A stretch of 64,000 nucleotides of DNA from Pseudomonadota bacterium (GTDB lineage: Bacteria > Pseudomonadota > Alphaproteobacteria > Rickettsiales > UBA3002), in contig JAZKJM010000003.1 of NCBI GenBank assembly GCA_040384265.1, forward strand, positions 15,919-79,918. Direction: 5' to 3'. The position numbers were made by a program, and so were the translations under genes. The notes below the pieces were generated by a model. The model was not told the origin of the DNA and ran no database searches. It saw nothing but the letters and a program-made list of their open reading frames with translations. Numbering within the stretch: position 1 is the stretch's first letter; each line of letters opens with the position of its first letter. Shown here piece by piece: positions 3,001 to 53,933 of this stretch.

Positions 3001-3419
3001 ATACCCCGGCCACCGTCCTGTCCGCACGCAACGGCGCGGGCGTAGCGGGCAGCTATGCCGGCAACTACACCGCCAGCGGCGCGGTAGATAATAACTACAG
3101 CTTCACCTACATTGCGGGCGACCTGCTGGTGACAGCAGCCCCTGCTGCCACCACCACCACCACACGGGTGCCATCCAGCGTCGAGCATCTCTCGCAGCCG
3201 CAGTTCTACAGCATCATCATGCCCACGCTGGTTTTCTCCCCGCAAGGCGACTCCCCGCTGGTGATGACAGTCACCGACACTCCTGGCCGCACCCCCACCG
3301 GCAGCAATACCAGCTACCGCCATAACGTGCAGAACGATACGCTCGAAATCGAAATCACCCGCCCCCTCGCCGACATACTCGGCATGCCCCACGCACGGCC
3401 GGAGCAGCAAAGCATCTAG
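1..3419 (+). CDS. Large secreted adhesin: filamentous-haemagglutinin-like beta-helix repeats plus C-terminal MBG-like repeats (5' end lies outside the window)
   Basis: The frame is open from nt 3 to the window edge, with no stop upstream of the listed start at 84. GGKVSVWAD...GNGGFIETSGGRV motif typical of haemagglutinin/TpsA-family passengers. About 700 aa of Gly/Thr/Asn-rich VTGTGG/TTTGTG-type repeats. Two C-terminal units of about 80 aa with the MBG-like pattern (..YDAAPTL.GYSY...AGSYSINYASGTL...Y.FTY..G.L.V). Stop at 3417-3419. Confidence 0.75.
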   Translation, partial: FAAAPRANVNEGAETTTPEEIPLPAAQVAPVVKPIPASLSTMIAQGALVSADATESGDGGKVSVWADERTTIGGRISADANNETGNGGFIETSGGRVAIEVNAGVTASSRRRRAGTWLLDPADIIITNADSAISGGPNYTPTNTASTIDVATIVTALLTTDVTITTTNDGFAGNGDITVSSAITSGTNHALTLSAYRNIAVDAAITTQGGAVTLRANNAGVGAGTVSITQAITTNGGNITIGGGAGAITAGAGYAEGGVVTSAAVDAAGGNILINGRTAAAASGVRIGAALGTSGTGTITLNGISGTGVDSLAGVDIRGNITSVDGAISITGLANAASTSSTQYGVWVGSGKTVQATGTGAVTVTGTGGGAAGSGLGNNGVFVDQGFIRGHGGAVNVTGTAGASSGGNDRGVVVQNGTISNTGSGTLNVTGHGAGVGNGNSNQGVFVFSGGRLTTVDGALTVVGTGANTNGGGADSLNHGVYLLGGTSAITTTGTGTINVTGTGGNGVGGTNHGITVENGSILGNGGAMTIDGTGAASDGADNYGVYVVNSSGNGISNIGTGTLSVTGHGGAGVSSRNYGVLAESGGKIITADGALTVNGFGGGSGGAFGFNSGVYVTGAGSTIKTTGSGNLAVNGTGGVGTSNDHGIFSEVSGGLTTSGAGSMTLSGTAGGGANSVGLLANTVGSVTTTGTGDITVLANSVLLGAAGNISSARNLAIAPLTAAATMSIGTTGSTLNLSNNDLNYITAASYSFGAANTGDMTINTTKDFGDANVTFRSGRDITLAGTLTKAAGTTTNITLAAARNFINTATTAFNVTAGRWLAYSTTPANSPLNGLTSNFVRYGCTYGGSCPTGVTIPTSGNGVIYSARPTLTITPTASISYYDAAPTLVGYSYGIAGYLTSAAGNDSTADALTGALTGTTTYTQGNNAGSYSINYASGTLASTLGYDFTYANNATGLTVNKVLLTGTVASQTIVGGTAIPASTVSYSGLRNNETAAVIDTPATVLSARNGAGVAGSYAGNYTASGAVDNNYSFTYIAGDLLVTAAPAATTTTTRVPSSVEHLSQPQFYSIIMPTLVFSPQGDSPLVMTVTDTPGRTPTGSNTSYRHNVQNDTLEIEITRPLADILGMPHARPEQQSI

Positions 3420-3608
3420 CGGCGCCACACCCGCAAGGGTGGGATAAATGGGAGAGCCTTAAGCACTCACGCCCGGCGTCGTCCCTCGGGTGATCATGAC
3501 CTTCCTCACCCGCCCCCTTACTTTATATTCGACATCTATTTTGCAGTTCTTTATACATGTGAGCGGCTGCCAACTCGGTGTAAATGCTTGGCAGTATACG
3601 GGGGCAAA

Positions 3609-6600
3609 ATGCGGGCATGGGGAGCAACGGCGCTGGCATGGATGCTTCTGGCATCGCCGCTTCATGCCGCGGCGCCAACTCCCCCACCCCCTGTGACGGC
3701 GAACAAAGTGGACGGCCCGGTGACGGGAACCCTGCCGGATAAAATCACGCTCTCGATCGATCCGCATAGCAGCAATTCGCCCAATTTGCAGGATAGGGCG
3801 CCGCTTTCCGTCTCGTTCTGCACAGAAACATCGAACATGGAAAAAGTGCTGCTCGATGGCAAATATGTGCTGCAGCCACGGGTCTATTGCAACACACCGG
3901 ATCGCAAGCTGCATTTGTCCGGAAGGCGGCAAAGCACCGGCATCGCCATGGTGCCGGAAATGCCCGGTGAATGGCGGTGGCGCAGCGACTATACGCTGAT
4001 GTTCAAGCCGAAAAAAGCCTGGCCCACGGGCCAGCATTACCAGCTGACTTTCAAACAGGAAATATTCCCCGATCAGGTAAAGCTCAATAACGGAAGCTAC
4101 AGCCTCGATACCGAGCCCCTGGTTGCACAGATTCCGCAAATGGAATTTTTCCAGGACCATGAGAATGTCGAGAAAAAAGCCGTCACCACCACGATTCGTT
4201 TCAATTCACCGGTCGATACAGAATCGCTGAAGCAGCATCTCGAATTTACCCTCGAGGAGTTGACGGACGACTCCAAACCCAACCAGCGCAAGGTCATTGC
4301 CAAAGCGGAGAACGTGCCGTTCGAGATCAACATGAACGAGCGCGCAACGGAAGCGGTTATCAGCACACCGCTAACGTCATTGCCCGATAAAGAGCGCTTT
4401 CTCAAGGTGGTGATTAAGCCCGGGCTGGTGGCCAAATCCGGAGGCAAGCCGCTCACTTATGTCGCCAATGGCCCGGGCCGGTTCGAGCAACGCGTCGCAG
4501 TACCGAGCCGGTTCAGCTATGCGAAAATCGACAAAATCGACCTGCGTGTCGTGAAGAACGATCGTTACGTGCCCGAGCAGATGCTCATCATCACTACCAA
4601 CGTTCCGGTGACGAGCGAAGAACTCGTCAAGCATCTGAAAATTCGCCTGCTACCGAAAGATAAGGCTGCCGAGTCCAGCGCCTATTCCGCGAAAAAGGAT
4701 TATGCCTGGACCAGTGCAAACGAGGTGACCGATGCATTGTTCGACAAAGCACCGGAAGTGAAATTCACCCCACTTCCAACCGCCGAACCCTACGCGACGC
4801 TGCATAGCGTGAAACTCGATACCGAAGCGGGCCGCTGGATTTACGCACGCATTACCGGGGGGCTGAACGCCAAGGGCGATTACGTGCTGGAGCATGACCA
4901 TAACGATACGCTGCGCGTACCGGAATATGAGAAAGAAGTGCAATTGCTCAGCGATGGCGCGCTGCTCAGCTTAAACGGCGAACGTAAAGTTTCGGTCTTT
5001 TCGCTCGGCGCCCGCAAGCTGAAATTCGATGTGAAGCGTGTGATTACGAGCGATATTGGCCATTTCATCAGCCAGACACGCGGCGATTTCGAGAAGCCTG
5101 AATTCGAAAATTATCAGTTTTCGGAAAACAATGTCAGCGAATCATTCAGTGAAGAAATCAGCTTGCCTCAAAGCGGCCCACGCACGCCGCAATTCAGCGC
5201 GTTCGACTTTACGCCCTACCTGAAGAAGAATCCCGATGCCAAGGGCCTGTTCAAGGGCGAGCCACATGGCAAAGGGCTGTTCTTCCTCACGATCAACGCC
5301 ATCGATCGGGATAAGGACGGCAAGGAGACGGTTGTCAGCAACGATAAGCGATTCGTGCTGGTGTCCGATCTGGGGTTGATCGTGAAAACCAATCGCGACG
5401 GATCGCACGATGCGTTCGTGCAATCCGTGCAGACCGGCAAACCCGTCTCGGGCGCCACGATCGAGGTGCTTGGCACCAACGGCCTGGCCGTGCTGAAGCT
5501 GGAAACCGATAGCGATGGGCATGCGAACATCCCCAATCTATCGGGCTTCATTAACGAGAAAGCGCCCGTGGCGTATGTGGTGCGCAATGACGATGATTTA
5601 GCGTTCATGCCCTACAGCCGCAGCGACCGCTCACTGAATTATTCGAAGTTCGAAACCGACGGCATCCATACCAGTGAGGAAGGGTTGAAAGCATTCCTGT
5701 TCTCCGAACGCGGCATCTACCGGCCGGGCGATGCGGTGCATATCGGTATCGTCGTCAAACAAGGCAACTGGGCGCAGAATCTGGAAGGCCTGCCACTGCG
5801 GCTTGAAATCACCAACCCGCGCGGCCAGGTGATCGACAAGCCACTGCTAAAAATGAACGCGGTGGGCTTTGTCGAATATCATTTCTCGACCAAGGATATT
5901 TCCCCTACCGGTGTTTATAATGTTCGGCTCTACATTACCAAGGATGGTGCGCAGGGCAATGCGCTGGGCAGCACCTCCGTTCGCGTCGAGGAGTTCCTGC
6001 CCGATACGATGAAGATTACGTCGGAATTCAACAAGCCCGTACCGAAGGGATGGATTACGCCCGAAGGGCTAAAAACAACCGTGACGCTGCAGCATCTGTA
6101 CGGTGCACCAGCCGTCGACTACCGGGTCAAGGCGGGGATCAATCTCTCGCCCGGCAGTTTTGCCTTCCCTGACTACGCCGATTACAGCTTCTTCGATGCG
6201 CTGAAGGCAGAAAAAAGCTTCGACCAGCCCATCGGCAGCAATCAAACCGATGCCGAAGGAAAAACAACCTTCGACCTGAATCTTAGCCAGTTTGGGGATT
6301 CCACCTACCGGCTGACCTTCTCCGGCGAAGGATTCGCGGCGGATTCCGGCCGTAGCGTCAAGACGGCGCGCAGCGTGCTGGTCTCGCCATTACCCTACGT
6401 CGTCGGGGTGAAAGCCAACAATCTGGGCTATATCAGCAAGGGCGACGCGCGCAAACTATCGCTGATCGCACTCGATCCGGATCTGAAGGCGATTGCGGCG
6501 AGCGGCCTCACCACCAAGCTGCTGCAAATCACCTATGTCTCGACCCTGGTGAAAGATGAGCGCGGGGCGTATGCGTACCGGTCTATTCCCAAAGAATCCG

Positions 6601-9491
6601 TCGTCGCCAACGGCACCATGAATATCGCCGCCAAGGGCCTTGCTTACCCGCTGGCGACCGACAAACCCGGCAGCTATGCGCTGGTCGTCTCCAATGCCAA
6701 GGGGCTGGTGCTGAACCGCATCCCCTATACCGTGGTGGGCACAGGAAGCATGATGGGCCAGGTGCGCAAGGACGCCCCCATCACCATTAAGCTCGATAAG
6801 CCGGAATACAATGCGGGCGATAAGATCGAAATGAATATCGTGTCGCCCTATACCGGCGCCGGGCTCATCACGATCGAAACGGATAAGGTGCTCAGCTATA
6901 AATGGTTCAGCACCGACAGCACCAGTTCGGTGCAGACCATCGCCATCCCCAAACGCTTTACCGGCAAAGGCTTCGTCAATGTCCAGTTCCTGCGGGCGAT
7001 TGATTCCAAAGAAATATACACCAAGCCGCTCGCATTCGCGGTAGTGCCATTCATGGTCAGCACCGCCTCGGTCGATAGCGCCATTGCGCTTGAGGTGCCG
7101 GAAAAAGCGAAACCCGGCGATAAACTCACCATCCACTACAGCATGGAAACCCCGGGCAAAATTATCATTTACGCGGTGGATGAAGGTATTTTGCAGTATG
7201 GCCATTACGTAACGCCCAACCCGTTGGAATATTTCATCGGCAAACGGGCACTACAGGTAGCGACGGCGCAAATCCTCGACCTGTTGATGCCGGAATATTC
7301 CATCATGCAGCAGCTTGCGGCACCCGGTGGCGACCGATCGCTGACGGAAGGGAAAAACCTTAACCCCTTCAAGCGCAAAACCCTGCCCCCGGTGGTGTTC
7401 TGGTCGGGGGTGATCGATGCGGATGAAAAACCGCGGCAGGTCACCTATCAGATTCCCGAATATTTCAATGGCGGCCTGAAGGTCATGGCAGTCGCCGTCT
7501 CCGAGCGCACCATTGGCGCAGCAGAAGCCAAGACGGCCGTGAAAGGCGACCTCATTGTTACGCCAAACGTACCCACATTCGCCGCACCGGGGGATGAATT
7601 TGTGGTGGGCGTCAGCGTCGCCAACAATATTGTGGGATCGGGCAAAAATGCGAAGCTGAAGCTGGCCGTTGCACCTTCCGAACATCTGGAGATTCTGGAG
7701 GGCAAGGAAACCACCCTGAGCGTCCCTGAAGGCACCGAAGCAAAAATGACATTACGCGTCAAACCGAAGGATGTGCTGGGTGGTGCAAGCCTGAAATTTA
7801 TTGCGACCGCTGCTGGCAAATCATCGAAATATGAAGCGACACTGAGTGTGCGGCCACCGCTACCGAGCATGACCGCACTAAGCAGCGGCTATGCCGACAA
7901 AGGCGAGAAAACCGTCGCTCAGGAGCGGGACCTTTACAAGGAATTCGGCACCGGCAGTGCGGCTGTTTCAACCCTCCCGGTCAGCCTCATTCCCGGCCTA
8001 TCGGCATATCTCGAGCGCTTCCCCTACGGTTGCACCGAGCAAACGATCAGCAAAGCGATGCCCGCGGTGATTCTCGCCGGACAGAAGGATCTGGGCGGCG
8101 ATTCCAAGCTGGTGGAGCAGGGCGTGGTGAATGCCATGAACCGCTTGCGCGAATTGCAGCAGCCGGGTGGCGGGTTCGGTTATTGGTGGCGCGGCGGCTC
8201 GGAAGATGAGTTCATCAGCACCTATGCCTTGCATTACATGACGCTGGCGAAGGAAAAACATTTGCCCGTGCCGGATGAAACCTTCCGCCAGACGCAGCAA
8301 TATGTAAAAGAACTGGTCAATCGCAGCCCGTCCTCGCTCGATCAGGCACGTGTGCAAGCGTATGGGATTTACCTGCTGACACGCAATGGGGAAGTGACCG
8401 CCAATTACCTGCCCAACCTGCTGCAGTATCTCAATACCAAGCAGAAAGACGCATGGAAGCAGGATCTGACGGCGGTCTATATCGCGGCTTCCTACAAACT
8501 GATGCAGTTGGCGCCGGAAGCGAACAAGCTGATGGATGAATTTGCCCTGGGCGATCCGGTCTCCTGGGCAAAAAACCCGCGTTTCTGGTGGAGCGAAAGC
8601 CCATACTATAACAGCATGAACCGCTACGCGCAGTATCTCACCGTCATCTCCAACCATTTCCCCGAGCGCTTGCCGCAGCTCGATCGCAATATCCTGTTTC
8701 GCATCGCGAACTTTATTGGGGAAGGAAGCTACAACACGCTCTCCTCTTCTTACGCCATCATGGCGTTCAGCAGCTACGGCCAGGCATCCAGCCAGCAAAC
8801 CCAAGCGCAGCTTTCCATCGCCCAAGCCGATGCCGCCGGTAAACTCACCGCGCTTGCGCTCACGGGCACCCAGGTGAAACGGGCCGCGCTGAGTGTGGAC
8901 AAGAACCCGGTGACATTTGCCGGTGGTGGAAAATACGGGCTGTTCTACCAGATCACTACCGACGGCTACGACCGCGCGCGTCCCACCCATCCGATTCAGG
9001 ATGGCCTGGAAATCAATCATCACTATCTCGATGCCGACCAGAAGCCGGTGAAAGAAGTTGCGATCGGCGACACCGTATTCGTCGTCGTCACCATGCGTGC
9101 GCATGATGATAAAACCCTGACCAACATGGCGGTCGTCGACCTGTTGCCCGCCGGGTTCGAAGTGGTGCCCGAAAGCATCGCCCGCCCGGTTGAAACCCGC
9201 CGCCCGTCGCGTGACGAGGACGATGAAGAAGCAGAAGACGACAGCGCCACGATGACCCCCGCAAATGATGATGCATCGTTCGATGGCCAGCCATGGGAGC
9301 CCGAAATGGTCGATGCCCGCGAGGACCGGGTAATCGCGTTCGGTACCGTGCCGTCGGAATTGGTGACCTGGCATTACAAAATAAAAGCGGTCAATGCCGG
9401 GTCGTTCGTTACCCCGCCGCCGTATGTGGAATCGATGTATGAGCGCGCCGTGAAAGCCAGGGGAGTGGTCGGGACGATCACGGTGAAATAA
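3609..9491 (+). CDS. yfhM: Bacterial alpha-2-macroglobulin family protein (YfhM/ECAM-like) with thioester motif
   Basis: 1960-aa ORF. CxEQ thioester motif RFPYG-CTEQ-T at nt 8031-8042. N-terminal signal peptide MRAWGATALAWMLLASPLHAAAP (ATG 3609 preferred over TTG 3588; GGGGG 7 nt upstream). Followed 3 nt later by pbpC, the classic A2M-PBP1C gene pair. Confidence 0.85.
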   Translation: MRAWGATALAWMLLASPLHAAAPTPPPPVTANKVDGPVTGTLPDKITLSIDPHSSNSPNLQDRAPLSVSFCTETSNMEKVLLDGKYVLQPRVYCNTPDRKLHLSGRRQSTGIAMVPEMPGEWRWRSDYTLMFKPKKAWPTGQHYQLTFKQEIFPDQVKLNNGSYSLDTEPLVAQIPQMEFFQDHENVEKKAVTTTIRFNSPVDTESLKQHLEFTLEELTDDSKPNQRKVIAKAENVPFEINMNERATEAVISTPLTSLPDKERFLKVVIKPGLVAKSGGKPLTYVANGPGRFEQRVAVPSRFSYAKIDKIDLRVVKNDRYVPEQMLIITTNVPVTSEELVKHLKIRLLPKDKAAESSAYSAKKDYAWTSANEVTDALFDKAPEVKFTPLPTAEPYATLHSVKLDTEAGRWIYARITGGLNAKGDYVLEHDHNDTLRVPEYEKEVQLLSDGALLSLNGERKVSVFSLGARKLKFDVKRVITSDIGHFISQTRGDFEKPEFENYQFSENNVSESFSEEISLPQSGPRTPQFSAFDFTPYLKKNPDAKGLFKGEPHGKGLFFLTINAIDRDKDGKETVVSNDKRFVLVSDLGLIVKTNRDGSHDAFVQSVQTGKPVSGATIEVLGTNGLAVLKLETDSDGHANIPNLSGFINEKAPVAYVVRNDDDLAFMPYSRSDRSLNYSKFETDGIHTSEEGLKAFLFSERGIYRPGDAVHIGIVVKQGNWAQNLEGLPLRLEITNPRGQVIDKPLLKMNAVGFVEYHFSTKDISPTGVYNVRLYITKDGAQGNALGSTSVRVEEFLPDTMKITSEFNKPVPKGWITPEGLKTTVTLQHLYGAPAVDYRVKAGINLSPGSFAFPDYADYSFFDALKAEKSFDQPIGSNQTDAEGKTTFDLNLSQFGDSTYRLTFSGEGFAADSGRSVKTARSVLVSPLPYVVGVKANNLGYISKGDARKLSLIALDPDLKAIAASGLTTKLLQITYVSTLVKDERGAYAYRSIPKESVVANGTMNIAAKGLAYPLATDKPGSYALVVSNAKGLVLNRIPYTVVGTGSMMGQVRKDAPITIKLDKPEYNAGDKIEMNIVSPYTGAGLITIETDKVLSYKWFSTDSTSSVQTIAIPKRFTGKGFVNVQFLRAIDSKEIYTKPLAFAVVPFMVSTASVDSAIALEVPEKAKPGDKLTIHYSMETPGKIIIYAVDEGILQYGHYVTPNPLEYFIGKRALQVATAQILDLLMPEYSIMQQLAAPGGDRSLTEGKNLNPFKRKTLPPVVFWSGVIDADEKPRQVTYQIPEYFNGGLKVMAVAVSERTIGAAEAKTAVKGDLIVTPNVPTFAAPGDEFVVGVSVANNIVGSGKNAKLKLAVAPSEHLEILEGKETTLSVPEGTEAKMTLRVKPKDVLGGASLKFIATAAGKSSKYEATLSVRPPLPSMTALSSGYADKGEKTVAQERDLYKEFGTGSAAVSTLPVSLIPGLSAYLERFPYGCTEQTISKAMPAVILAGQKDLGGDSKLVEQGVVNAMNRLRELQQPGGGFGYWWRGGSEDEFISTYALHYMTLAKEKHLPVPDETFRQTQQYVKELVNRSPSSLDQARVQAYGIYLLTRNGEVTANYLPNLLQYLNTKQKDAWKQDLTAVYIAASYKLMQLAPEANKLMDEFALGDPVSWAKNPRFWWSESPYYNSMNRYAQYLTVISNHFPERLPQLDRNILFRIANFIGEGSYNTLSSSYAIMAFSSYGQASSQQTQAQLSIAQADAAGKLTALALTGTQVKRAALSVDKNPVTFAGGGKYGLFYQITTDGYDRARPTHPIQDGLEINHHYLDADQKPVKEVAIGDTVFVVVTMRAHDDKTLTNMAVVDLLPAGFEVVPESIARPVETRRPSRDEDDEEAEDDSATMTPANDDASFDGQPWEPEMVDAREDRVIAFGTVPSELVTWHYKIKAVNAGSFVTPPPYVESMYERAVKARGVVGTITVK

Positions 9492-9494
9492 CCG

Positions 9495-11834
9495 TTGCTA
9501 CGGGCCCTACACATCACCCGGCGTCAGTGGATCAAGGCCGCCAAAATAAGTGCGGCGAGCGTCGCCTTTGCCTTCGTTGTCTTTCTCGCGTTTAAGCCGC
9601 CACTGCTCGACACTGTCAGCTTCTCCCATGCGGTGTTCGATCGGCACGGCGCGCTGCTGCGGCTTACCTTATCGCGCGATGAGAAATACCGTCTCTTCGT
9701 GCCGCTTAACGATATCGCGCCGCATTTGCGCGAAGGGGTGCTGCTGCATGAAGACCAGTATTTCTATCGCCATGCGGGCGTGAATCCCGTCGCGCTTGGC
9801 CGTGCATTTGTCCAATCCTATCTCTTACGCAACCGCAAGATCGGCGCCTCCACCATCACCATGCAGCTGGCGCGCATCCAATACGGCATCAACAGCCACC
9901 GCATCACCGGAAAGCTCTGGCAGATCGCGCGCGCCGTGCAGCTTGACCTGCATTACAGCAAGGATGCATTGCTCGAAGCCTACCTGAACCTCGTGCCGTA
10001 TGGCTATAATGTCGAAGGCGTAGGCGCGGCGAGCTTTATCTATTTGCACAAGAAGCCGATCGACCTCACCTTGCCCGAATCGCTGACCCTCGCCGTCATT
10101 CCGCAGAACCCCAATAAGCGCAGGCCGGAGCACGCCAATCCCGCCAAACCGGCACTTATCCAAGCACGCAACCGGTTGTTTGAGCGGTGGCTCGAAACCC
10201 ACCCGGAAAGTGCCGACCAGAAACCTTTCTTCACCTTGCCCCTTGCAACCTATGGCGTGGAGAATCTCCCGTTTCGGGCACCGCATCTGGTCGTCAACCT
10301 TCTGGCCAAATATAAAACCATCGGGCAAATCCATAGCACGGTCGATCTCGATATGCAGACGATGCTCGAAAATATTCTGCGCCGCTACGTTACCGACCGG
10401 CGCGATATCGGCATCAACAATGCCAGCGCCTTGCTGGTCGATACACAGACCATGCAGGTCATCGCCAGCATCGGTTCCGCCGATTTCTTCAACAAACCGA
10501 TCAGCGGACAAGTCGATGGCACGAACGCCAAACGCTCGCCGGGCTCGGCGCTGAAACCCTTTGTCTACGCGCTGGCGTTCGATCAGGGGCTCATCCACCC
10601 GATGAGCGTGCTGGGCGATGCGCCGACCAATTTCGGCAGCTACAGCCCCGATAATTTCGACCGCGATTTCCGCGGGCCCATCCCGGCGCACGATGCGCTG
10701 CGCTTAAGCCGCAATGTGCCCGCCATCACGCTCGCTTCGCAACTGAAAGCACCCGATCTCTATCAGTTCTTTACCCAGGCCGGCATCGCCAAGCTGCGCA
10801 CAAAGGACGATTATGGCCTGTCGCTGGTGCTCGGCGCCGCCGAAGTAACCATGCGCGAACTTGCCGGATTGTACGCCATGCTCGCCAATGATGGCATGCT
10901 GCAACCCCTCGTGTTTCGCATGGACGACACGCAGACGCCAAAACGCGAACCGCTCCTCACGGGCGAGGCAAGTTTCATGACGCTCGATGCCCTGCGCGAT
11001 ACGCCCCGGCCCTATAGCGTCAGTGAAGCGCACCGCGTCTATTGGAAAACCGGCACGTCCAACGGCTACCGCGATGCCTGGACTGCGGGCGTGTTCGGCC
11101 ATTATGTGCTGGTGGTGTGGGTAGGGAATTTTAACGGTAAAAATAACCCGGCGCTGGTCGGGGTGCGCACCGCCGCGCCGCTGTTCTTTGCAATGGTCGA
11201 TGCCATCGATGAAAAAGAGCCCCACCCCGAACGCATTGCGTCCAAGCCCAACCACTTGCGGCTGCGTAAACTGGATGTGTGCGCTACCACCGGCGATCTA
11301 TCCTCCGAGGGCTGCCCGGCTTTGGCCAGCACCTGGTTCATTCCGGGCGTGTCGCCCATTCATCGGCACGATGTCTACCGTAAAATCCTGGTGAATATCG
11401 CGACCGGCAAACGCGCCTGCCATTTCGAACCCGGCCTCACCGAATACCGCACCTTTGAGGTATGGCCGAGCGATCTGCGGCAAACCCTGCAAAAAGCCGG
11501 TATTCGCAAACCCTCCCTGCCACCGCGCGAGCAAAACTGCGATAACACAACCGCGCCATCAAGCGGGCGGGCGCCGGTCATCACGTCACCCCAGGCCAGC
11601 GTTGAATACCATGCCCGCCTGACGGATAGCGCATCGGAGGCGATTCCCCTGAACGCTACCGCAGACGGCGATGCCACCAGCTTGCATTGGTTCATTGATA
11701 ACGATTATTTCGGAAAATCTGTTCCCGGCGAATCCCTTTCCTGGCATCCCAAACCCGGCCGCTACCAAGTGCGCGTTGTCGATGAACATGGGCGCTCCGC
11801 GGCGACAACCATGCTGGTTTCCCTTGCGCAATAG
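9495..11834 (+). CDS. pbpC: Penicillin-binding protein 1C (bifunctional transglycosylase/transpeptidase)
   Basis: GT51 motifs EDQYFYRHAGVNP and GASTITMQLAR. Transpeptidase SxxK (GSALKPF) and KTG (YWKTGTS). N-terminal TM anchor. Located directly downstream of the A2M gene. Confidence 0.85.
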   Translation: MLRALHITRRQWIKAAKISAASVAFAFVVFLAFKPPLLDTVSFSHAVFDRHGALLRLTLSRDEKYRLFVPLNDIAPHLREGVLLHEDQYFYRHAGVNPVALGRAFVQSYLLRNRKIGASTITMQLARIQYGINSHRITGKLWQIARAVQLDLHYSKDALLEAYLNLVPYGYNVEGVGAASFIYLHKKPIDLTLPESLTLAVIPQNPNKRRPEHANPAKPALIQARNRLFERWLETHPESADQKPFFTLPLATYGVENLPFRAPHLVVNLLAKYKTIGQIHSTVDLDMQTMLENILRRYVTDRRDIGINNASALLVDTQTMQVIASIGSADFFNKPISGQVDGTNAKRSPGSALKPFVYALAFDQGLIHPMSVLGDAPTNFGSYSPDNFDRDFRGPIPAHDALRLSRNVPAITLASQLKAPDLYQFFTQAGIAKLRTKDDYGLSLVLGAAEVTMRELAGLYAMLANDGMLQPLVFRMDDTQTPKREPLLTGEASFMTLDALRDTPRPYSVSEAHRVYWKTGTSNGYRDAWTAGVFGHYVLVVWVGNFNGKNNPALVGVRTAAPLFFAMVDAIDEKEPHPERIASKPNHLRLRKLDVCATTGDLSSEGCPALASTWFIPGVSPIHRHDVYRKILVNIATGKRACHFEPGLTEYRTFEVWPSDLRQTLQKAGIRKPSLPPREQNCDNTTAPSSGRAPVITSPQASVEYHARLTDSASEAIPLNATADGDATSLHWFIDNDYFGKSVPGESLSWHPKPGRYQVRVVDEHGRSAATTMLVSLAQ

Positions 11835-12313: not shown

Positions 12314-13162
12314 ATGAAGCGCGGCTTCAGCCTTGTCGAGCTTTCGGTCGTGGTTTCCATCATGAGCGTCGTCTCGGTGATGGGGCTCGAAGGGGCCGCT
12401 AACTTCATCAACCGCACCTCGGGTGCCGTCACTAAGGACCGCCTCGCCGTCGTCGACACCGCCATCGCCCGGTTTTTCCGCATTTATGGCCGCCTGCCCT
12501 GCCCGGCCGCGCGCACTGCCGCACCGCTCGGCTCCACCAGCTACGGGCTGGAGGATTGCTCCATCGGCACCTTCGCCACCGGCACCAACTACGCCAGCCT
12601 CATCGGTGGCGGGCTGATGAGCGGCGCGGTGCCCTTTCGCACCCTCAACCTGCCCATGAGCACCTCGCTCGATGGTTTCAGTAGCAAAATCAACTATGTC
12701 GTGACCAAAAACATGACCCTCGCCGGCACCACTACCGGCCGTTTCGGATTTTATGATGGCACCAACGCCACCACCATCGCCGCCAGCGGCGTCGGCGGCA
12801 TCCAGATTCGCACCGGCGTGCTGGCCCAGCCCTGCAACACCGGCAGCTGCAACACCGTCGCCGACCCCACTACCACTCCGCCCGATGGCGCCGCCTACAT
12901 CGTCTTTAGCTCCGGCTCGGATAAGCGCGGGGCCTATTCGGCAAACGGGGTGGCCACCACCGCCTGCATCCCCACCCCCACCGCCGCGCATAACTCGCGG
13001 GTGGATTCGCAAAACTGCGTGCAGGGCCTGCCCGGCACCAACACCGTCTCGGTCAGCAACATTCCCAACAATGTGTTCTACGATAACCGCTACAATGCCG
13101 GGCTCAACCTCACGAACTATTTCGACGATTACGTGATCTGGCGCAAACGGAGCCAGCTATGA
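12314..13162 (+). CDS. Prepilin-type (GspG/type IV pilin-like) protein, paralogue 1 of 5
   Basis: Class III signal MKRG|FSLVELSVVVSIMSVV (short basic leader, G-1, F+1, E+5, hydrophobic helix). Shares blocks YGRLPCPA, GAVPFRTLNLP, YIVFSSGSDKRGAY and C-terminal YFDDYVIW with the four downstream genes. ATG 12314 is preferred to the listed 12272 because prepilin leaders are short. Confidence 0.7.
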   Translation: MKRGFSLVELSVVVSIMSVVSVMGLEGAANFINRTSGAVTKDRLAVVDTAIARFFRIYGRLPCPAARTAAPLGSTSYGLEDCSIGTFATGTNYASLIGGGLMSGAVPFRTLNLPMSTSLDGFSSKINYVVTKNMTLAGTTTGRFGFYDGTNATTIAASGVGGIQIRTGVLAQPCNTGSCNTVADPTTTPPDGAAYIVFSSGSDKRGAYSANGVATTACIPTPTAAHNSRVDSQNCVQGLPGTNTVSVSNIPNNVFYDNRYNAGLNLTNYFDDYVIWRKRSQL

Positions 13163-14445
13163 TGCGCGCCCGCCATGGTTTCAGCCTGCTCGAACTGTCG
13201 GTGGTGCTGGCCATCATCTCGCTGGTGGCTGCGGCGGGCATTTCGCTTGCCAGCGGCGCGCTCAAAGCCGCCGACCGCGTGACCACGCAGGAGCGCCTCA
13301 ACACCATCAAGCTCGCCCTCGATAGCTACACGAAGCTCTACGGCTACCTGCCCTGCCCGGCCGACCGCGCCAAGGTCACGACCGATACCGACTTTGGCGT
13401 CGAAAAGCGCACTGGCCCGCCCGGCACCACCTGCACCGTCAGCAGCCCGGGCATTGTCTCGGTGACCGGGGCCTATTACGGCGGCGTCCCCACCCGCACC
13501 CTCGGCCTGCCCGATAACTATGCGGGCGATGCATGGGGCAACAAACTGACCTACGCCGTGTCCAGCAACCAGGTCACCAATAGCGCCAGCGCCGCGGGCT
13601 CTGACGGTGCCCTTAACGTTCGCTATGGCGAGCGCACCGGCACGTTCTACACGGTGACTACGCAGCGCGTTCAGGTGAACTTTACCGGCGTCACCAACCC
13701 TGCCGGTAACACGGCTCGTTTTGCTGTCGCCAGCACCAGCGGCATTGCGGTAGGCACCATTGTCACCCCGGTCAGCACCAACTTCGGCAAAGGCTCCTTT
13801 GCCGTCACCGCATTCAGCAACAATGCATGGATCGAAGTGAATCTCGGCGTTGCCGTTCCGGCCACTGAAGCAGGCACGCTCACCTGGCAAACCCCCGGCC
13901 CGGCCGCGTCGTATGTCGTGGTCAGCCACGGGCCGGATGGGCGGGGCGCATTCCCCACCGCGGGCACGGCCGTGCCTGCCGTGAAACTCTGCATTGCCGT
14001 TGCCGCCAACAGCTCGCCGCTGCCATGCAGCGTCGCCGCCGATGCCACCAAATGTAACGACATCGAGAACTGCAACGAGGTCAACGGCGGCAGCGACGTC
14101 ACCTTCTACGATACCTCCTACAATGACGGCCCCAACGCAGCGCAGTATTTCGACGATTATGTCGTCTGGGGCAGCAATGCGAGCGCACGCGTCGCCGTCA
14201 ACAACACCGCCTATACCAGCTGCACCAGCGGCTGCGAAAGCTGGTGCGCGCCCTGCACCGGCAGTTATAATTACCCCGGCGCCTTCGCCGTACCCGCTGG
14301 CCTTACTACCAACCTGACCAACCCCGTATTGTGCAACAAAGTACTCTATAGCAGCTCCACCAACTGCTTTGCCTCCTGCTTCTGGAGCGGCACCGCACTG
14401 ACTGCCGCCGCAGGTGGTGTCGGTGCATACAGCAGGTGCCCATGA
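13159..14445 (+). CDS. Prepilin-type (GspG-like) protein, paralogue 2 of 5, with Cys-rich C-terminal extension
   Basis: MMRARHG|FSLLELSVVLAIISLV. Blocks YGYLPCPA, GGVPTRTLGLP, DAWGNKLTYAVS (GspG-like DPWGN block), YVVVSHGPDGRGAF and YFDDYVVWG. Start overlaps the upstream stop by 4 nt (ATGA). GGAG 8 nt upstream. Confidence 0.7.
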   Translation: MMRARHGFSLLELSVVLAIISLVAAAGISLASGALKAADRVTTQERLNTIKLALDSYTKLYGYLPCPADRAKVTTDTDFGVEKRTGPPGTTCTVSSPGIVSVTGAYYGGVPTRTLGLPDNYAGDAWGNKLTYAVSSNQVTNSASAAGSDGALNVRYGERTGTFYTVTTQRVQVNFTGVTNPAGNTARFAVASTSGIAVGTIVTPVSTNFGKGSFAVTAFSNNAWIEVNLGVAVPATEAGTLTWQTPGPAASYVVVSHGPDGRGAFPTAGTAVPAVKLCIAVAANSSPLPCSVAADATKCNDIENCNEVNGGSDVTFYDTSYNDGPNAAQYFDDYVVWGSNASARVAVNNTAYTSCTSGCESWCAPCTGSYNYPGAFAVPAGLTTNLTNPVLCNKVLYSSSTNCFASCFWSGTALTAAAGGVGAYSRCP

Positions 14446-15200
14446 TGCATGCACCCCGCACCCGCAACCCGCGCGAACAGGGCTTCACCCTCGTCGTCAT
14501 TGCTGCGCTATTCATCGCCTTCGCGGTGATTGGCGCGGCGGCGGTCGAGCGCAACACCACCGCCCAGCAGATCACCCGCCGCACCGCCACTGCCGAGCAG
14601 CTCACCCGCCTGTCCAACGCCATCATTGAATATTCGGTGTTCAACCGCAGCGGCACCACCAATATCTACCCCTGCCCGGCGCGCTACGACCTTGACCCCA
14701 GCAACGCAAGCTTCGGCATCAGTTACACCGGTTGCTACAACACCGCCCCAACGGCAAGCGGCGGTGTAGTGCTCACCGCAGGATCAACCGATATCCTTCG
14801 CGGCATGGTGCCGGTGCAGACCCTCTCCCAATATGGTGGCATCAACGTGAACGACGCGTTCGACCCGTGGAACAACCGCATCATGTATATCGTCAACCGC
14901 CAGATGACATCGGCCCTCGGCACCCCGGTCAAGGCCAATAACCCCACCGTCACCGAGGTCACCACCAGCCAGACCATCGCCGCGCCGGACTTCATCCTCG
15001 TCAGCTATGGCCGCGACGGGGTGGGTGCCTATAAACGCGTCGATACCACGGTCGCCATTGGCTGCGCCGCCGCCAGCACCGAGCGCCGCCTCGAAAACTG
15101 CGACAACGATATCGCTTTCAACCAGGGACCGACCTACACCGCCACCAACGCCACTACGACCACCTATTTCGACGACATCCTCAGCTATTACCGCCAGTAA
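14442..15200 (+). CDS. Prepilin-type protein, paralogue 3 of 5, lacking Glu+5 (minor-pseudopilin-like)
   Basis: Longer leader MMHAPRTRNPREQG|FTLVVIAALFIAF with Val instead of Glu at +5. Retains blocks IYPCPA, GMVPVQTL, DPWNNRIMYIVN, FILVSYGRDGVGAY and YFDDILSYY. ATGATG overlaps the upstream TGA; the exact start (14436/14442/14445) is uncertain. Confidence 0.6.
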   Translation: MMHAPRTRNPREQGFTLVVIAALFIAFAVIGAAAVERNTTAQQITRRTATAEQLTRLSNAIIEYSVFNRSGTTNIYPCPARYDLDPSNASFGISYTGCYNTAPTASGGVVLTAGSTDILRGMVPVQTLSQYGGINVNDAFDPWNNRIMYIVNRQMTSALGTPVKANNPTVTEVTTSQTIAAPDFILVSYGRDGVGAYKRVDTTVAIGCAAASTERRLENCDNDIAFNQGPTYTATNATTTTYFDDILSYYRQ

Positions 15201-15339: not shown

Positions 15340-16032
15340 ATGAACCGCGGCTTTACCATGCTCGAACTGACCATCGTCATCGCCATTAGTGGGCTGATGC
15401 TGGGCTTCGTGCTGCAAGCCACCAAAAGCAACCAAAGCTCGGAATGCTACGCCACCACCAAAGTCCAGCTTGCGACAGTGCAGACCGCCATCACCAGTTT
15501 CGTTCGCAAGAACGACCGCTACCCCATGCCCGCCCGCCGCGATATTGGCGTGAGCGATGCCAATTACGGGCGCGAAGCCGTCGCCGCCAACCTGACCGTT
15601 TCGGGCACCACCACCTGGGGCGCGTTGCCGTTTCAGGCGCTTGGCCTGCCCACTTCCTTTGCGGGTGACTGCTGGGGCAATAAATTCACCTATGTCGTGA
15701 CCACCGCCCTCACCACCAACGCCGCCAGCGGTGGTTATCTGGATGCTGCGGTGGTTGGTACCATCACCGTAAAAAGCGGTGCCAGCACCACCTCAAGCAC
15801 CGCTGCCGCCTACGCCGTCATCAGCCAGGGCGAGGACATGCTCAACGCCGCCGCCCTCAACGCCACCAGCGTCAGCTGGTGCGGCACCGGCACCACCCTT
15901 GCCACCTACAACTGCTACCCCGCCAACTCGCCCGCCACCGTCGCCAACGCCCTGTTCAACAACGGCAAGAATGCTGGCGCGGCCTATTTCGATGACCTTG
16001 TCATCGCCGCCGACCGCGCGAGGGTCATCTAG
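15340..16032 (+). CDS. Prepilin-type (GspG-like) protein, paralogue 4 of 5
   Basis: MNRG|FTMLELTIVIAISGLML. Blocks RYPMPA, GALPFQALGLPTSFAGDCWGNKFTYVVT, YAVISQGED and YFDDLVIA. Closely related to the N-terminal about 230 aa of the next gene. Confidence 0.7.
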   Translation: MNRGFTMLELTIVIAISGLMLGFVLQATKSNQSSECYATTKVQLATVQTAITSFVRKNDRYPMPARRDIGVSDANYGREAVAANLTVSGTTTWGALPFQALGLPTSFAGDCWGNKFTYVVTTALTTNAASGGYLDAAVVGTITVKSGASTTSSTAAAYAVISQGEDMLNAAALNATSVSWCGTGTTLATYNCYPANSPATVANALFNNGKNAGAAYFDDLVIAADRARVI

Positions 16033-16118
16033 CGTGATAAACTGCGTGCAGCGCGGCGGTGATTATGCTATGCTTTAACCATGCCACTAAATGGCACCAC
16101 GCCTCTCTCAGGACATGC

Positions 16119-18350
16119 ATGAAGCGTCGCGGATTTTCACTAGTCGAAATGTCGATTGCGCTTGTGGGAGCGGGCCTATTAGCGGGTGTGGTGCTGACGA
16201 TGACCTCGGCCAGCACCCGTTCGGGTTGCTACGAAACCACCCAGGCTCAGCTCACCACCATCAAGGATTCCCTGCAGAAATACGCCCAGCAGAACGACCG
16301 CTACCCGCTACCCGCCAACCGCCGCCTCGGTGTCAGCGATCCGAACTTTGGCCGCGAAGCGACCGTCCCCACCGACATCGACACCGATGCCACCACCGGC
16401 ATCTCCTATGGTGCGCTGCCGTTCCAGGCGCTCGGCCTGCCGACCTCCTTTGCCGCCGATTGCTGGGACAATAAATTCACCTACGCCGTGACCACCGCCT
16501 ACACCACCAGCGCCGGCTTCCTCGACCATGCCAAAACCGGCGCCATCGCCATCAACAGCACCGCCGCCGCTGCGCTGCTGCCCGAAGCGGCCTATGCTGT
16601 CATCAGCCACGGGCAGGACGGTATCGGCGCGGTGAAACGCAACTATGCCGGTGCCAGTAAGGAATGGTGCCTGACCGCCGCCACCGCCGCGCTCGCCCCA
16701 CTGCAGACCAAAAACTGCGGGCTGCTGCCCACCCTGATCGCCAGCCAGTTCAACGATGGCAAAAACAGCGGCGACCAGTATTACGACGACCTCGTCGCCT
16801 ATAACGGTCGCCCGCAAGTCCTGCCCTGCACCCTGCCCGCGCGTGTCGACTGGACCGTCAGCGGCAACGCATGCGCGGCCAAGCCCGACAACACCAGCCA
16901 CCAGATGACGAACTTCGACACCATCGCCAACGTGCTCAATGATGTCACCCTCGCCGCAGGCTATAGCGGCAAGGTCTCCGTACTGTGCAAAAATGGCGTC
17001 GTCGACCCCGTGCTTGACGGCAGCGAGACATGCATACCGCTACCATGCACGGTTAGCACCACCCTGACATGGCTAACTGGTGGCAACGAATGTAGCGCCA
17101 CGGCCACCGCCAGCAGCACTGCCCCCGTTGATAATGGCGCCACCGTCGCACTCACCACCACCGGTGGCACCACCAGCAACAGCGGCACCGCAACCGCCAC
17201 CTGCGATCACGGCACGTTTAAACTGGATCCAAGCGTTGTTCAAACCTGCAACCTGCCCGCCTGCAAACCCTTCTTCGCACCCTCCATGGAAACCAAGAGC
17301 GAAGGCAGCGGATTTGCCTTGGTCAGCACCGACGGAATCCGAGTGTGGCATGGGTCTGGAACCAATAACTATAGCATGCTTCCCCTCAAAACGACGCACA
17401 TATCCTCAGGCGGCATCCCGACCACCAATGCCCTTGTGCAGCTTGTGTTTGGCCCATGGGCCGGGGGCTATAACGATACTGAGGGGCGCCTCACCCCCAC
17501 CAGCAGTGGCAAATGGGAACTAACCGCCCCCTTGCCGGGCAACTGGCGCAATGACGGCGGCGTCGGTGTCTATGATACCCTCTATACGCTTACCGTCTAC
17601 GACATGGAAACCCTGACAAGCGCCCAGATGGACTCCGCCCATTACGATGACCATGTGTCGGTCGAGGTCAATGGTGTGCAGGTTTTCAATAGCGAAGGCG
17701 GCTCTATGCTCGAGGTCCCTGCATCGTTGGGAGGGGCGTATATGAAGCCCTCCCCTGGCGGTTTGGTCCAAACCTGCTCGGATGCCACCTATGACCAATC
17801 GCCTCCCGTGGAATCGGGCGATAGCAGCCCCACGTATCCCGCCCCCACCATCTCATGCCTGACCGGCGGAGAAACAGGTAGTGCACGTTCCAGTTACAAC
17901 GCTGTGAATATTAAGCCCTACCTGCATGCTGGCGCAAACATCATCAAGGTGCGCACCATCATTGGCGGGCTTGGCCATGGTGTTGTGTATATGAGCGCCA
18001 GTTCCCGCGCCCCGGCCACCCCTGCGACATCCTGCGCAACGGGTAACTGGGCGCTCGGCCCCTACAGCGCCTGCTCCGCCTCGTGCGGTGGCGGCACCAT
18101 AACGGCGAGCTATTACTGCACCGGCGGCACGGGCGAATGCACCAGCCCACAACCCGCCACTCTAACGCAGGCCTGCAACACGCAAGCATGCGGCCAGTGC
18201 AACACCTGCAGCAATGGCGCAGTTCCCTTAGTGCGGGTGGGCGGCAACAAAGAGAACAAAACCTACACCACCTATTGCGCGGATGGCAGCCCCTACACCT
18301 CCTGCGCCCCGCCACCCGTAGAATACCAAAACAGCAGCGGCGACCGCTAG
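16119..18350 (+). CDS. Large prepilin-type protein (paralogue 5): pilin module fused to Cys-rich repeats, a jelly-roll-like domain and a thrombospondin type-1-like repeat
   Basis: MKRRG|FSLVEMSIALVGAGLLAG at ATG 16119. Blocks RYPLPA, GALPFQALGLPTSFAADCWDNKFTYAVT, YAVISHGQDGIGAV and YYDDLVAY. Then two tandem units of about 70 aa (nt 16821-17264). Then a segment with HYDDHVSVEVNGVQVF...NIIKVRTIIGG. Then WALGPYSACSASCGGGTITASYYCTGGTGECTSPQPATLTQACNTQAC (nt 18033-18191), with six Cys spaced x3/x10/x6/x11/x4 as in TSP1 repeats. Confidence 0.7.
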   Translation: MKRRGFSLVEMSIALVGAGLLAGVVLTMTSASTRSGCYETTQAQLTTIKDSLQKYAQQNDRYPLPANRRLGVSDPNFGREATVPTDIDTDATTGISYGALPFQALGLPTSFAADCWDNKFTYAVTTAYTTSAGFLDHAKTGAIAINSTAAAALLPEAAYAVISHGQDGIGAVKRNYAGASKEWCLTAATAALAPLQTKNCGLLPTLIASQFNDGKNSGDQYYDDLVAYNGRPQVLPCTLPARVDWTVSGNACAAKPDNTSHQMTNFDTIANVLNDVTLAAGYSGKVSVLCKNGVVDPVLDGSETCIPLPCTVSTTLTWLTGGNECSATATASSTAPVDNGATVALTTTGGTTSNSGTATATCDHGTFKLDPSVVQTCNLPACKPFFAPSMETKSEGSGFALVSTDGIRVWHGSGTNNYSMLPLKTTHISSGGIPTTNALVQLVFGPWAGGYNDTEGRLTPTSSGKWELTAPLPGNWRNDGGVGVYDTLYTLTVYDMETLTSAQMDSAHYDDHVSVEVNGVQVFNSEGGSMLEVPASLGGAYMKPSPGGLVQTCSDATYDQSPPVESGDSSPTYPAPTISCLTGGETGSARSSYNAVNIKPYLHAGANIIKVRTIIGGLGHGVVYMSASSRAPATPATSCATGNWALGPYSACSASCGGGTITASYYCTGGTGECTSPQPATLTQACNTQACGQCNTCSNGAVPLVRVGGNKENKTYTTYCADGSPYTSCAPPPVEYQNSSGDR

Positions 18351-53213: not shown

Positions 53214-53908
53214 TGGACCGGGAAGGTAGGGGGCAGGTAAATCAGCTCACCGTGACGCGGCATGAAATACGTACGTTTTGTATAAACCCTGGGCTCAAGA
53301 AAGAAGGTGAACCCAAGATTGCCACCTGCCGCACCGACCCCTTGCAAAAGATCCTGAATCAGCGGCTGGTAACGGTAACACACTTCGCTCACCAGCATGT
53401 TTTCATTGTCGGGCATGGTGGCCAGCAACCCGGCTGCAGGGGCACCGAAAGCCGCGGTGGTTCCCGCAACGGCCGCGTCTGGCGGTTGCTGCGGGGTAGC
53501 CCCGTTCACAATGCTTGTGCAGTCGTCGCCGAGCGTGCCGCCGCCCGATATCTGCCACTGTATCTTAATAGAGCCATTGATCTTTTTCACCGAGGTCAGG
53601 ATAATCGCCTGCGCGTCCTCCCTCTCGTAGGGACTCATAATGCGGTTAAAAATGGGAAACACATCCGTGCGCAGCACCGATTCCTTGAGCTCGCCAGCAA
53701 AATTACCAGGGGTCGCTGGGTTATACTGGCTAACAATATCGGCCACCACATAGCCCGTTTTTTCCAGCTTCTGGTGAATCAGCATCAGCCGCACCACCTC
53801 GACCCCGCCAAACAGCAGCAGGAAAAGGAACGGAAAAATAAACGCGAACTCGATCAGCGCAACCCCGCGCTCATTTCGTATCCATGATTTCAATCGCACA
53901 AAAAACAT
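53210..53908 (-). CDS. TadE/TadF-like pseudopilin
   Basis: ERG|VALIEFAFIFPFLFLLLFGGVEV: a Flp-type G/xxxxEF processing motif plus a hydrophobic helix. Confidence 0.75.
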   Translation of the reverse strand: MFFVRLKSWIRNERGVALIEFAFIFPFLFLLLFGGVEVVRLMLIHQKLEKTGYVVADIVSQYNPATPGNFAGELKESVLRTDVFPIFNRIMSPYEREDAQAIILTSVKKINGSIKIQWQISGGGTLGDDCTSIVNGATPQQPPDAAVAGTTAAFGAPAAGLLATMPDNENMLVSEVCYRYQPLIQDLLQGVGAAGGNLGFTFFLEPRVYTKRTYFMPRHGELIYLPPTFPVQ

Positions 53909-53933
53909 TCAGGAAACCTTGCTTGCCGTTGGG

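Follow-up and report, generated by a model that had tools for sequence, protein, structure and literature searches.

A candidate modular minor pilin with a TraN-tip-like domain and a thrombospondin type-1 repeat in an uncultured alphaproteobacterium

Modular pilins combine in one polypeptide a pilin module and one or more extra modules that are not pilus-specific (PMC8179133). A survey of this class recognised more than 1,200 proteins with 264 architectures, including PilB and PilC of Streptococcus sanguinis, which carry a vWA and a lectin module, respectively (Raynaud et al. 2021, PMC8179133). Both of these bind ligands, and a location at the pilus tip has been proposed for them (PMC8179133). 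Dataset S1 of the same survey includes one pilin with two thrombospondin type-1 repeats (TSRs; IPR012902-IPR000884-IPR000884), as well as pilins with PA14 and S74 cargos (PMC8179133). Modular pilins are thought to give simple filaments new binding specificities, and few of their cargos have been identified. Here, we describe a 743 aa prepilin, named E, that is encoded at positions 16119–18350 (forward strand) of a 64,000 nt stretch of contig JAZKJM010000003.1 (assembly GCA_040384265.1), from a bacterium in the Alphaproteobacteria. This stretch is referred to as the window, and all positions given below without a further label are window positions.

Two further groups of proteins are relevant to E. 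The TraN-M proteins of IncA/C plasmids and the TraN-L (TrhN) proteins of IncH plasmids are mating-pair-stabilisation proteins of MPF_F systems (PMC13104618; Low et al. 2022, PMC9246713). In the 1058 aa TraN-L of the IncH plasmid R27, the tip is formed by residues 305–457, a loop-flanked beta-sandwich that fixes recipient specificity, and TraN-L works with OmpA (He et al. 2026, PMC13104618). In the Kil Tad-pilus of Myxococcus, interchangeable minor-pilin 'Tips' recognise prey (PMC12075869). E has the make-up that defines a modular pilin: a pilin module (aa 1–235) is followed by Cys-framed units, a beta-sandwich related to TraN tips and a TSR. We therefore read E as an adhesin-displaying modular minor pilin that is predicted to lie at the pilus tip with its ligand on another surface, and put the probability of this reading at roughly 0.7. 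An earlier, sequence-only reading of the window had likened E to the large minor pilins CofB, TcpB and ComZ, a likeness that fits the modular-pilin concept (PMC8179133).

The ORF at 16059–18350 is uninterrupted, and translation from the ATG at 16119, which has AGGA 5 bases 5' of it, gives the 743 aa product and a stop codon. From this start, the N terminus reads MKRRG|FSLVEMSIALVG (the same start is also recorded as MKRRG|FSLVEMSIALVGAGLL; the bar marks the predicted cut), in agreement with the start of the nearest homologue, P0002, MRHRGFSLVEMSIALVG. A class III signal peptide can be read directly from the sequence MKRRG|FSLVEMSIALVGAGLLAGVVL, with a short basic leader that ends in Gly (16119–16133, forward strand; cut predicted before F6), a hydrophobic helix of approximately 20 aa and a Glu at +5. 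The G|FSLVE prepilin motif is unambiguous, and motifs of this type are also present in homologues with intact N termini. The public gene call, P0001, begins at Met11 (MSIALVG...) and lacks the segment that contains the leader (16119–16148), which probably explains the missing pilin annotation of P0001. Thus, one uninterrupted gene was found at the position given in the sequence-only reading, together with the motifs described there. That reading had also considered a frameshift that joins two genes. However, the junction between module and cargo is kept in P0002 (DDLIIYNGRPEVLSC vs DDLVAYNGRPQVLPC), more than 30 homologous ORFs run unbroken across it, and G+C content at third codon positions (GC3) is coding-like along the entire gene. 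By these features, the E gene is not a fusion artefact.

The mature pilin module (aa 6–235; 16134–16823, forward strand) includes the hydrophobic alpha1-N helix, a globular head with four conserved Cys and a C-terminal [FY]DD motif. Residues 1–235 of E align end to end with the 230 aa prepilin D and approximately 30 homologues, as far as the shared [FY]DD, and align full length with all four prepilin-like genes found upstream (A, B, C and D). The E module is 48% identical to prepilin D, and aligns with the N-terminal parts of 15 database proteins, sharing 41–69% identity with the modules of the close set among them. Overall, the module is conserved in approximately 35 proteins and includes the motifs GALPFQALGL and DCWxNKFTYAVT. 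Prepilin D ends exactly where the cargo of E starts. The alignments with D and the homologues bear out the earlier description of E as a fifth prepilin that keeps a complete module of about 230 aa and continues into about 510 aa of cargo.

All four upstream prepilin genes are in the same orientation as E. Prepilin A (12314–13162; N_methyl 22.8 bits) has orthologues at the same position in related loci, as does the 428 aa prepilin B (13159–14445; N_methyl 28.3 bits), which was also recognised by module alignment. Prepilin D (15340–16032) is a bare E-type pilin module. Glu5 is present in A, B, D and E, while prepilin C (14445–15200), recognised by module alignment, has the motif G|FTLVV; the residue at +5 is Val both in the window copy and in 13 of the 13 orthologues examined. 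B extends beyond its [FY]DD motif by a short Cys-rich tail that occupies approximately the last 75 codons, and on sequence grounds it is a mini modular pilin too. A subunit that lacks Glu5 (GspK, PilX/PilK) caps the minor-pilin tip complex that primes assembly of type IV filaments. A cluster of minor-type pilins that includes one without Glu5 matches the make-up of the GspHIJK and FimU-PilVWX tip complexes.

The largest part of the cargo is a beta-sandwich (aa ~440–638; 17436–18032, forward strand) that includes a variable Cys loop (C553 and C580). An exhaustive search of 1.84 billion representative proteins returned 48 significant matches to the C-terminal query, and the sandwich segment matched unnamed, Cys-rich proteins that bear signal peptides. 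The ten examined share two motif blocks, G.Y.L..G..GDNYW.GG..YDR.LTF.I.D....F.L....[FY]DD[WYH]..V.VNG..VYNGP.GGD.LE and IDLRPYL..G.N.I..RT.V.G.GE, and HYDDHVSVEVNGVQVF and NIIKVRTIIGG in E represent the two best-conserved motifs of this domain family. The ten relatives have no Pfam match, and NCBIfam TraN models match seven of the nine that were scanned, at model positions 110–392 of 931 and 192–447 of 1062. When one relative was used as a tblastn query, 405 plasmid records were returned, 377 of them conjugative. The window domain returned seven plasmid records, of which six are conjugative, and one match is an annotated TraN in a traV-traC-traH-traN operon. In a BLASTP comparison, both halves of the window domain are covered by a match to residues 282–418 of that annotated TraN, from Nitrosophilus (E-value 2e-10; identity approximately 25%). 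Using hhalign, the domain alignment matched residues 322–384 of the IncHI TrhN (probability 97.6%, E-value 3.6e-12), a match that involves only the first half of the domain and falls inside the tip at 305–457. A local hidden Markov model (HMM) confirmed the same sandwich and TraN regions and provided the domain boundaries, and the predicted core is all-beta. By these sequence comparisons, the sandwich has a demonstrable evolutionary relationship to TraN tips. However, as no match to the TraN base domain was found (no TraN model matches E itself) and the neighbours of E are pilins and dnaK rather than a tra/trh operon, we conclude that E is not a TraN and shares only the tip-type domain with it.

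A weak call of a PA14/CBM-type jelly roll had been made for this segment in the sequence-only reading. A PA14 identity was rejected: PF07691 does not match E at an E-value ≤1 or any of the ten domain relatives at ≤0.01. The jelly-roll impression is reasonable at the level of the fold, for which the evidence comes from a low-confidence AlphaFold2 (AF2) model. Its all-beta core has pLDDT (predicted local distance difference test) values of 78–90, and nearly all Foldseek matches of the model were to sugar-binding modules or to enzymes active on carbohydrates (CBM6, GH2 family, PA14), with E-values ≥3e-3 and template modelling (TM) scores of approximately 0.25. A CBM6/GH2/PA14-like fold is thus weakly suggested. 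The GC3 of the segment (17436–18032) is 0.67, vs 0.76–0.79 in the other segments of the gene and in adjacent genes, and this lower value may indicate that the segment was acquired more recently.

Proteins of approximately 400 aa that contain a TraN-tip-type sandwich and are annotated 'hypothetical' were seen in two MPF_F plasmids, one from Burkholderia (L021:11992-13215) and one from Pseudomonas (L024:7245-8432). The Pseudomonas gene lies right upstream of an annotated TraN and the gene next to the Burkholderia one is 'hypothetical', and in both plasmids genes for DsbA and a GspE-like ATPase are found nearby. One possibility is that TraN is split in such cases; another is that these proteins are accessory adhesins for mating.

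The sandwich is followed by a TSR (aa 639–691; 18033–18191, forward strand). Its six Cys (C652, C656, C667, C674, C686 and C691) have the spacing x3/x10/x6/x11/x4, as noted in the sequence-only reading, and are preceded by a seventh, C639. They align with those of TSP-1, ADAMTS13 and 41 TSRs obtained in a library search. When compared with Pfam, the E-values were significant (1.2e-4 for TSP1_ADAMTS, PF19030, and 0.004 for TSP_1, PF00090), but the scores are below the curated cut-offs, the better by 1.1 bits (22.7 vs 23.8 bits) and the other at 17.8 vs 21.6 bits. All matches to PDB sequences within the segment are TSRs, from TSP-1, ADAMTS13 and semaphorin-5A. Most of the 48 matches in the exhaustive search fall on aa ~633–700, and all of those scanned with Pfam contain TSRs (Pfam E-values down to 1e-165) except P0047. 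Single-stretch matches reach an E-value of 8.7e-5 at 50% identity. AF2, run on the TSR and the tail with 41 such repeats, predicted three strands for aa 639–691 with pLDDT of 85–95, and the top 50 PDB structures listed by Foldseek are all TSRs, with TM scores up to 0.71 (BAI1 TSR3). The comparison with known structures is consistent with a TSR, with an input alignment made up of TSRs. Taken together, the sequence matches support the TSR call.

The Trp/Arg ladder of this TSR is non-canonical. Only W643 is kept, Y649 occupies the position of the last Trp, and the Arg of TQTRxVxC corresponds to Ala in TITASYYC. The same A...Y variant is found in P0039, P0034, P0047 and P0054, a subset of the closest matching TSRs. 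The sequence-only reading had pointed out that TSRs are mainly eukaryotic and had proposed a eukaryotic target. However, the named matches are bacterial, namely entries annotated 'thrombospondin type-1 domain-containing protein' from Myxococcota MAGs (metagenome-assembled genomes) and a protein from an alphaproteobacterial MAG. The argument is thereby weakened, and the taxonomy of its TSR relatives no longer favours a eukaryotic target for E. A search for literature on bacterial TSRs found nothing relevant.

The Pfam scores below the gathering thresholds, a sequence rich in T, S, G and A, and the probable origin of the window from a metagenome-assembled contig would all be expected if the TSR were a low-complexity, Cys/Gly/Thr-rich mimic, or if a mis-assembled or frameshifted contig had joined two genes. 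Two word-index searches with the C-terminal part were also empty, which we attribute to a limit of the method, as the exhaustive search gave 48 matches. Against this explanation, a 50% identical single-stretch match at 8.7e-5 among 1.84 billion proteins is hard to ascribe to chance, independent PDB and Pfam matches converge on TSRs, and TSRs recur in relatives of E, in one case above the Pfam cut-off. With the conserved junction, the continuous homologous ORFs and the coding-like GC3 described above, chance or artefact is largely refuted and we regard it as highly improbable.

Two tandem Cys-framed units of about 70 aa connect the module to the remainder of the cargo, as the sequence-only reading had described. 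Unit 1 (aa 237–305; 16827–17033, forward strand) includes C237, C252, C290 and C305, and unit 2 (aa 309–378; 17043–17252, forward strand) includes C310, C325, C362 and C377. A four-Cys unit of approximately 60 aa emerged from a local HMM for which the window and four homologues supplied the seed sequences, and this HMM detects units 1 and 2 with E-values of 1.7e-9 and 1.1e-9, respectively. The consensus is C-x6-8-W-x3-8-C ... G-x5-C-x2-G-x-[WV]-x6-10-C, and 15 family proteins were found to contain a total of 74 copies, at most 10 each. In 32 family proteins, no Pfam family matched the units at an E-value ≤0.01. When the unit profile was compared with PDB sequences, most matches were to complement control protein (CCP)/Sushi proteins (HpARI at 1e-4, factor XIII-B and factor H; range 1e-4 to ~1), and these cover only the C-terminal G..C..G.W...C half of the unit. 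As the PDB matches are weak and partial, there is no Pfam Sushi match and the Cys spacing is ~14/37/14 vs ~30/13/14 in Sushi, a Sushi/CCP identity was rejected. The units are treated here as a family-specific repeat that probably acts as a stalk and may bear a distant likeness to Sushi modules.

Between unit 2 and the sandwich, aa 379–439 (17253–17435, forward strand; pLDDT <50) form a linker or an N-terminal extension of the next domain that includes an odd Cys, C382; no homologues of this segment were found. The TSR had been described as the end of the protein. Instead, it is followed by a 52 aa tail (18192–18347, forward strand) with four Cys (C694, C697, C720 and C729) that is predicted, at low confidence, to form a beta-hairpin and for which no relatives were found. 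Each unit accounts for four Cys, the sandwich loop for two, the TSR for six and the tail for four. This leaves C382 (17262–17264) and C639 (18033–18035), one on either side of the mid-domain. The TraN-like relatives also carry Cys on either side of the sandwich. Going by position, C382 and C639 may form a disulfide clasp.

When the module alignment was scanned against one genome per GTDB species, 20 loci were detected, all of them in uncultured alphaproteobacterial MAGs. The gene order A-B-C-[one or two D/E-type pilins]-dnaK-dnaJ is found in at least eight related loci, with dapB next where the locus is long enough, and the order A-B-C-[cargo pilin]-dnaK-dnaJ is also found in the metagenome contig L022. 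In locus L019, there is no D/E-type gene at the cargo-pilin position. The cargo pilin in L022 is a pilin-RCC1 fusion located at the exact syntenic position of E, and we conclude that fusion of a pilin to cargo is a trait of the family and not an assembly artefact. The D/E-type proteins are 348 to 2862 aa long and contain 0–10 Cys units, and a Pfam scan of 32 of them (E-value ≤0.01) found RCC1 propellers in seven and TSRs in three, as well as one S74 chaperone domain and one ALK/LTK glycine-rich domain. Judged by synteny, the cargo at the A-B-C-[X]-dnaK position is exchangeable between relatives. Pilin-TSR fusions, which the sequence-only reading had proposed to survey, recur: the family members P0007, P0008 and P0012 have one, and so does P0059, a prepilin not related to this family (N_methyl 23.9 bits, TSP1 56.9 bits). 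Thus, the fusion in E is not unprecedented.

Two members of the family have unusual cargo. P0008, a 760 aa metagenome protein, has the family pilin module, a TSR above the Pfam cut-off and a C-terminal region with weak Hint/PT-HINT matches, a hint that the cargo may be released by autoproteolysis or processed in a toxin-like manner. An extreme expansion is seen in an alphaproteobacterial MAG, where a 2862 aa family pilin with 96 Cys (L017:9030-17615) is encoded directly upstream of dnaK.

Autoprocessing of the kind suggested for P0008 would release cargo, as might be expected if E were a pseudopilin of a type II secretion-like system or another non-pilus filament, with its cargo kept at the outer membrane or in the periplasm, for example to act as a plug or substrate adaptor or to be released by cleavage. 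The N terminus of E scores best against the GspG and GspH models, and the five clustered pilin genes, one without Glu5, mirror GspG-K. However, the Gsp matches span only the generic N-terminal 60 residues and reach 25 bits against a cut-off of 88.9, and no type II secretion genes are present in the 64 kb window. Adhesin-type repeats that make up as much as 2600 aa of cargo are easier to reconcile with display at the surface than with a piston in the periplasm, and TSRs, TraN tips and RCC1 are extracellular or binding modules. A pseudopilin role is, on balance, very unlikely.

The remaining explanation is that E is a host-directed adhesin of an organism that lives with a eukaryote, either a protist or an animal, and that the TSR, the Sushi-like units and RCC1 bind matrix, glycosaminoglycans or receptors in the way that TRAP and MIC2 do. 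The fold and Cys framework of the TSR are common to TSP-1, properdin, ADAMTS13 and TRAP, the Cys-unit profile retrieves CCP/Sushi proteins from the PDB, if weakly, and seven relatives carry RCC1 cargo. There is also a parallel in S. sanguinis PilB, which binds host proteins with a eukaryote-like vWA module (PMC8179133). However, the named closest relatives of the TSR are bacterial, the Trp/Arg ladder is not kept, and the sandwich, the largest domain of the cargo, is a relative of TraN tips, whose binding partners are outer-membrane proteins of bacteria (PMC13104618). Several of the related MAGs are labelled Rickettsiales, but MAG taxonomy labels are unreliable and the window resembles that of a free-living aerobic alphaproteobacterium (cytochrome oxidase, MreB/RodA/PBP2, alpha-2-macroglobulin). 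We consider a host-directed role unlikely.

For E as a modular minor pilin, the following mechanism is proposed. Prepilin peptidase would cut after Gly5, and the alpha1-N helix would insert E into a type IV filament. The bulk of E would place it at the fibre tip, alongside the co-encoded pilins A, B and C, with C as the Glu5-less capping subunit, the part played by GspK and PilX in known tip complexes. The two Cys units would serve as a stalk that holds the sandwich and the TSR off the fibre, where they could bind a ligand on another surface. The filament position of E may alternatively be taken by the bare pilin D, without cargo. Both the tip location and the adhesive function of E are inferred. 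The relationship to TraN tips suggests a bacterial outer-membrane target, and the ligand may thus be an outer-membrane component of another Gram-negative cell, whether prey, partner or kin. Alternatively, the ligand could be eukaryotic or a glycan.

Several observations weigh against this reading. The N terminus of E falls short of the cut-offs of both Pfam N_methyl (PF07963; 15.3 vs 21.2 bits, E-value 0.015) and TIGR02532 (15.5 vs 16.3 bits, E-value 0.011), although N_methyl cut-offs are passed by the paralogues A, B and D, with which E aligns across the whole module. HMM searches, with PDB sequence searches for B and C, found no similarity of pilins A–C to GspH-K or FimU/PilVWX past the N-terminal helix, and no assembly ATPase, platform, secretin or prepilin peptidase gene is present within the window. 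The overall pLDDT of the sandwich model is 55.9, and the AF2 and Foldseek results for the TSR are not an independent test because the input alignment consisted of TSRs. This TSR also lacks the Trp/Arg ladder that eukaryotic TSRs use for ligand binding. The local HMM did not find the TraN-tip-like domain in any other sampled pilin of the family, and no close relative of the E cargo was found in JGI metagenomes. Finally, for all family members binding is a prediction.

A more far-reaching version of the modular-pilin reading is that a clade with a fixed A-B-C-[X]-dnaK cassette swaps the cargo of its tip pilin, among RCC1, TSRs, Sushi-like units and Hint, and that in this case it captured the recipient-recognition tip of TraN, so that the pilus would choose a bacterial target by the outer-membrane-protein logic of TraN. 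We regard this as doubtful. If true, pilus tip adhesins and TraN would be connected in evolution in a way that had not been recognised before.

The other genes in the window are housekeeping genes, including those for alpha-2-macroglobulin and PBP1C, dnaK/dnaJ/dapB, cytochrome oxidase and mreB/mreC/PBP2/rodA. The region directly upstream of the pilin cluster, 3588–11834 (forward strand), encodes a bacterial alpha-2-macroglobulin of approximately 1967 aa followed by a PBP1C-type protein, which is a usual gene pair. A 1111 aa ORF at 84–3419 (forward strand), for which the sole Pfam match is MBG_2 near the C terminus, is possibly another surface or adhesin-like protein. On the reverse strand, a Tad-type pilin-like set at 51837–54641, unrelated to E, includes a TadG-like protein with a vWA domain (51837–53213) and two TadE-like proteins (53210–53908 and 53934–54641). 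It represents a second filament system in which the large subunit carries an adhesin-type module.

One pilin scaffold that is found at one syntenic locus with differing cargo provides a natural experiment for the evolution of pilus specificity. The link to TraN tips leads to a testable class of ligand, outer-membrane proteins of other Gram-negative bacteria, and suggests that adhesion outside conjugation also makes use of the TraN tip sandwich, as a mobile module. The TSR results add to the evidence that bacteria have a sizeable family of TSRs and that these are repeatedly found on pilins, and a bacterial TSR is therefore not automatically a host-directed module derived from a eukaryote.

Of the known systems, E can be compared first with TraN. 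The sandwich of E is homologous to the TraN tip, the distal and variable part of TraN, through which a recipient is selected via its outer-membrane proteins. Unlike TraN, E has no TraN base domain and no accompanying conjugation genes, and its sandwich is carried on a pilin rather than on an outer-membrane anchor. The two sandwiches share only approximately 25% identity, and the alignment extends over both halves with the Nitrosophilus TraN but over just the first half with TrhN. The TSR of E has the six-Cys framework CSxxCGGG...C...C...CNTQAC and the predicted three-stranded fold of the TSRs in TSP-1, properdin, ADAMTS13, TRAP and Myxococcota proteins. It differs from these in being a single copy with a short C3-C4 loop, and in its reduced ladder, which consists of W643 and Y649 and has Ala instead of Arg.

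Minor-pilin tip complexes (the Kil 'Tips', FimU/PilVWX with PilY1, GspHIJK and CofB/TcpB) resemble the E cluster in consisting of a set of pilins with one subunit that lacks Glu5, and in having one large subunit that exposes a domain variable between paralogues and strains, for which recognition of a target cell is proposed. In contrast to those complexes, the pilins of the E cluster are similar to their counterparts only in the alpha1-N helix, and the tip arrangement is inferred. The leader of E is also of the T4a/T2SS type, not the Flp/Tad type as in the Kil Tad pilus.

The closest correspondence is with the modular pilins (PMC8179133). As in those proteins, E has a class III signal peptide and a pilin module, with C-terminal modules attached via a short linker, and a role in adhesion and exposure at the tip are predicted for it. 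Unlike the surveyed examples, the module of E is large (~230 aa) and belongs to a family that is specific to a clade of uncultured Alphaproteobacteria, and the cargo is a four-part chain. As no Pfam model matches the sandwich or the four-Cys units at the thresholds used, a signature-based survey would probably miss both. The combination of cargo domains in E, above all a TraN-tip-like domain on a pilin, is absent from the one survey of modular-pilin architectures consulted (PMC8179133) and from the other family members sampled. Thus, while pilin-TSR fusions have already been catalogued, the TraN-tip cargo is the new element of E, and we conclude that E is a new example of the modular-pilin design rather than a new kind of system.

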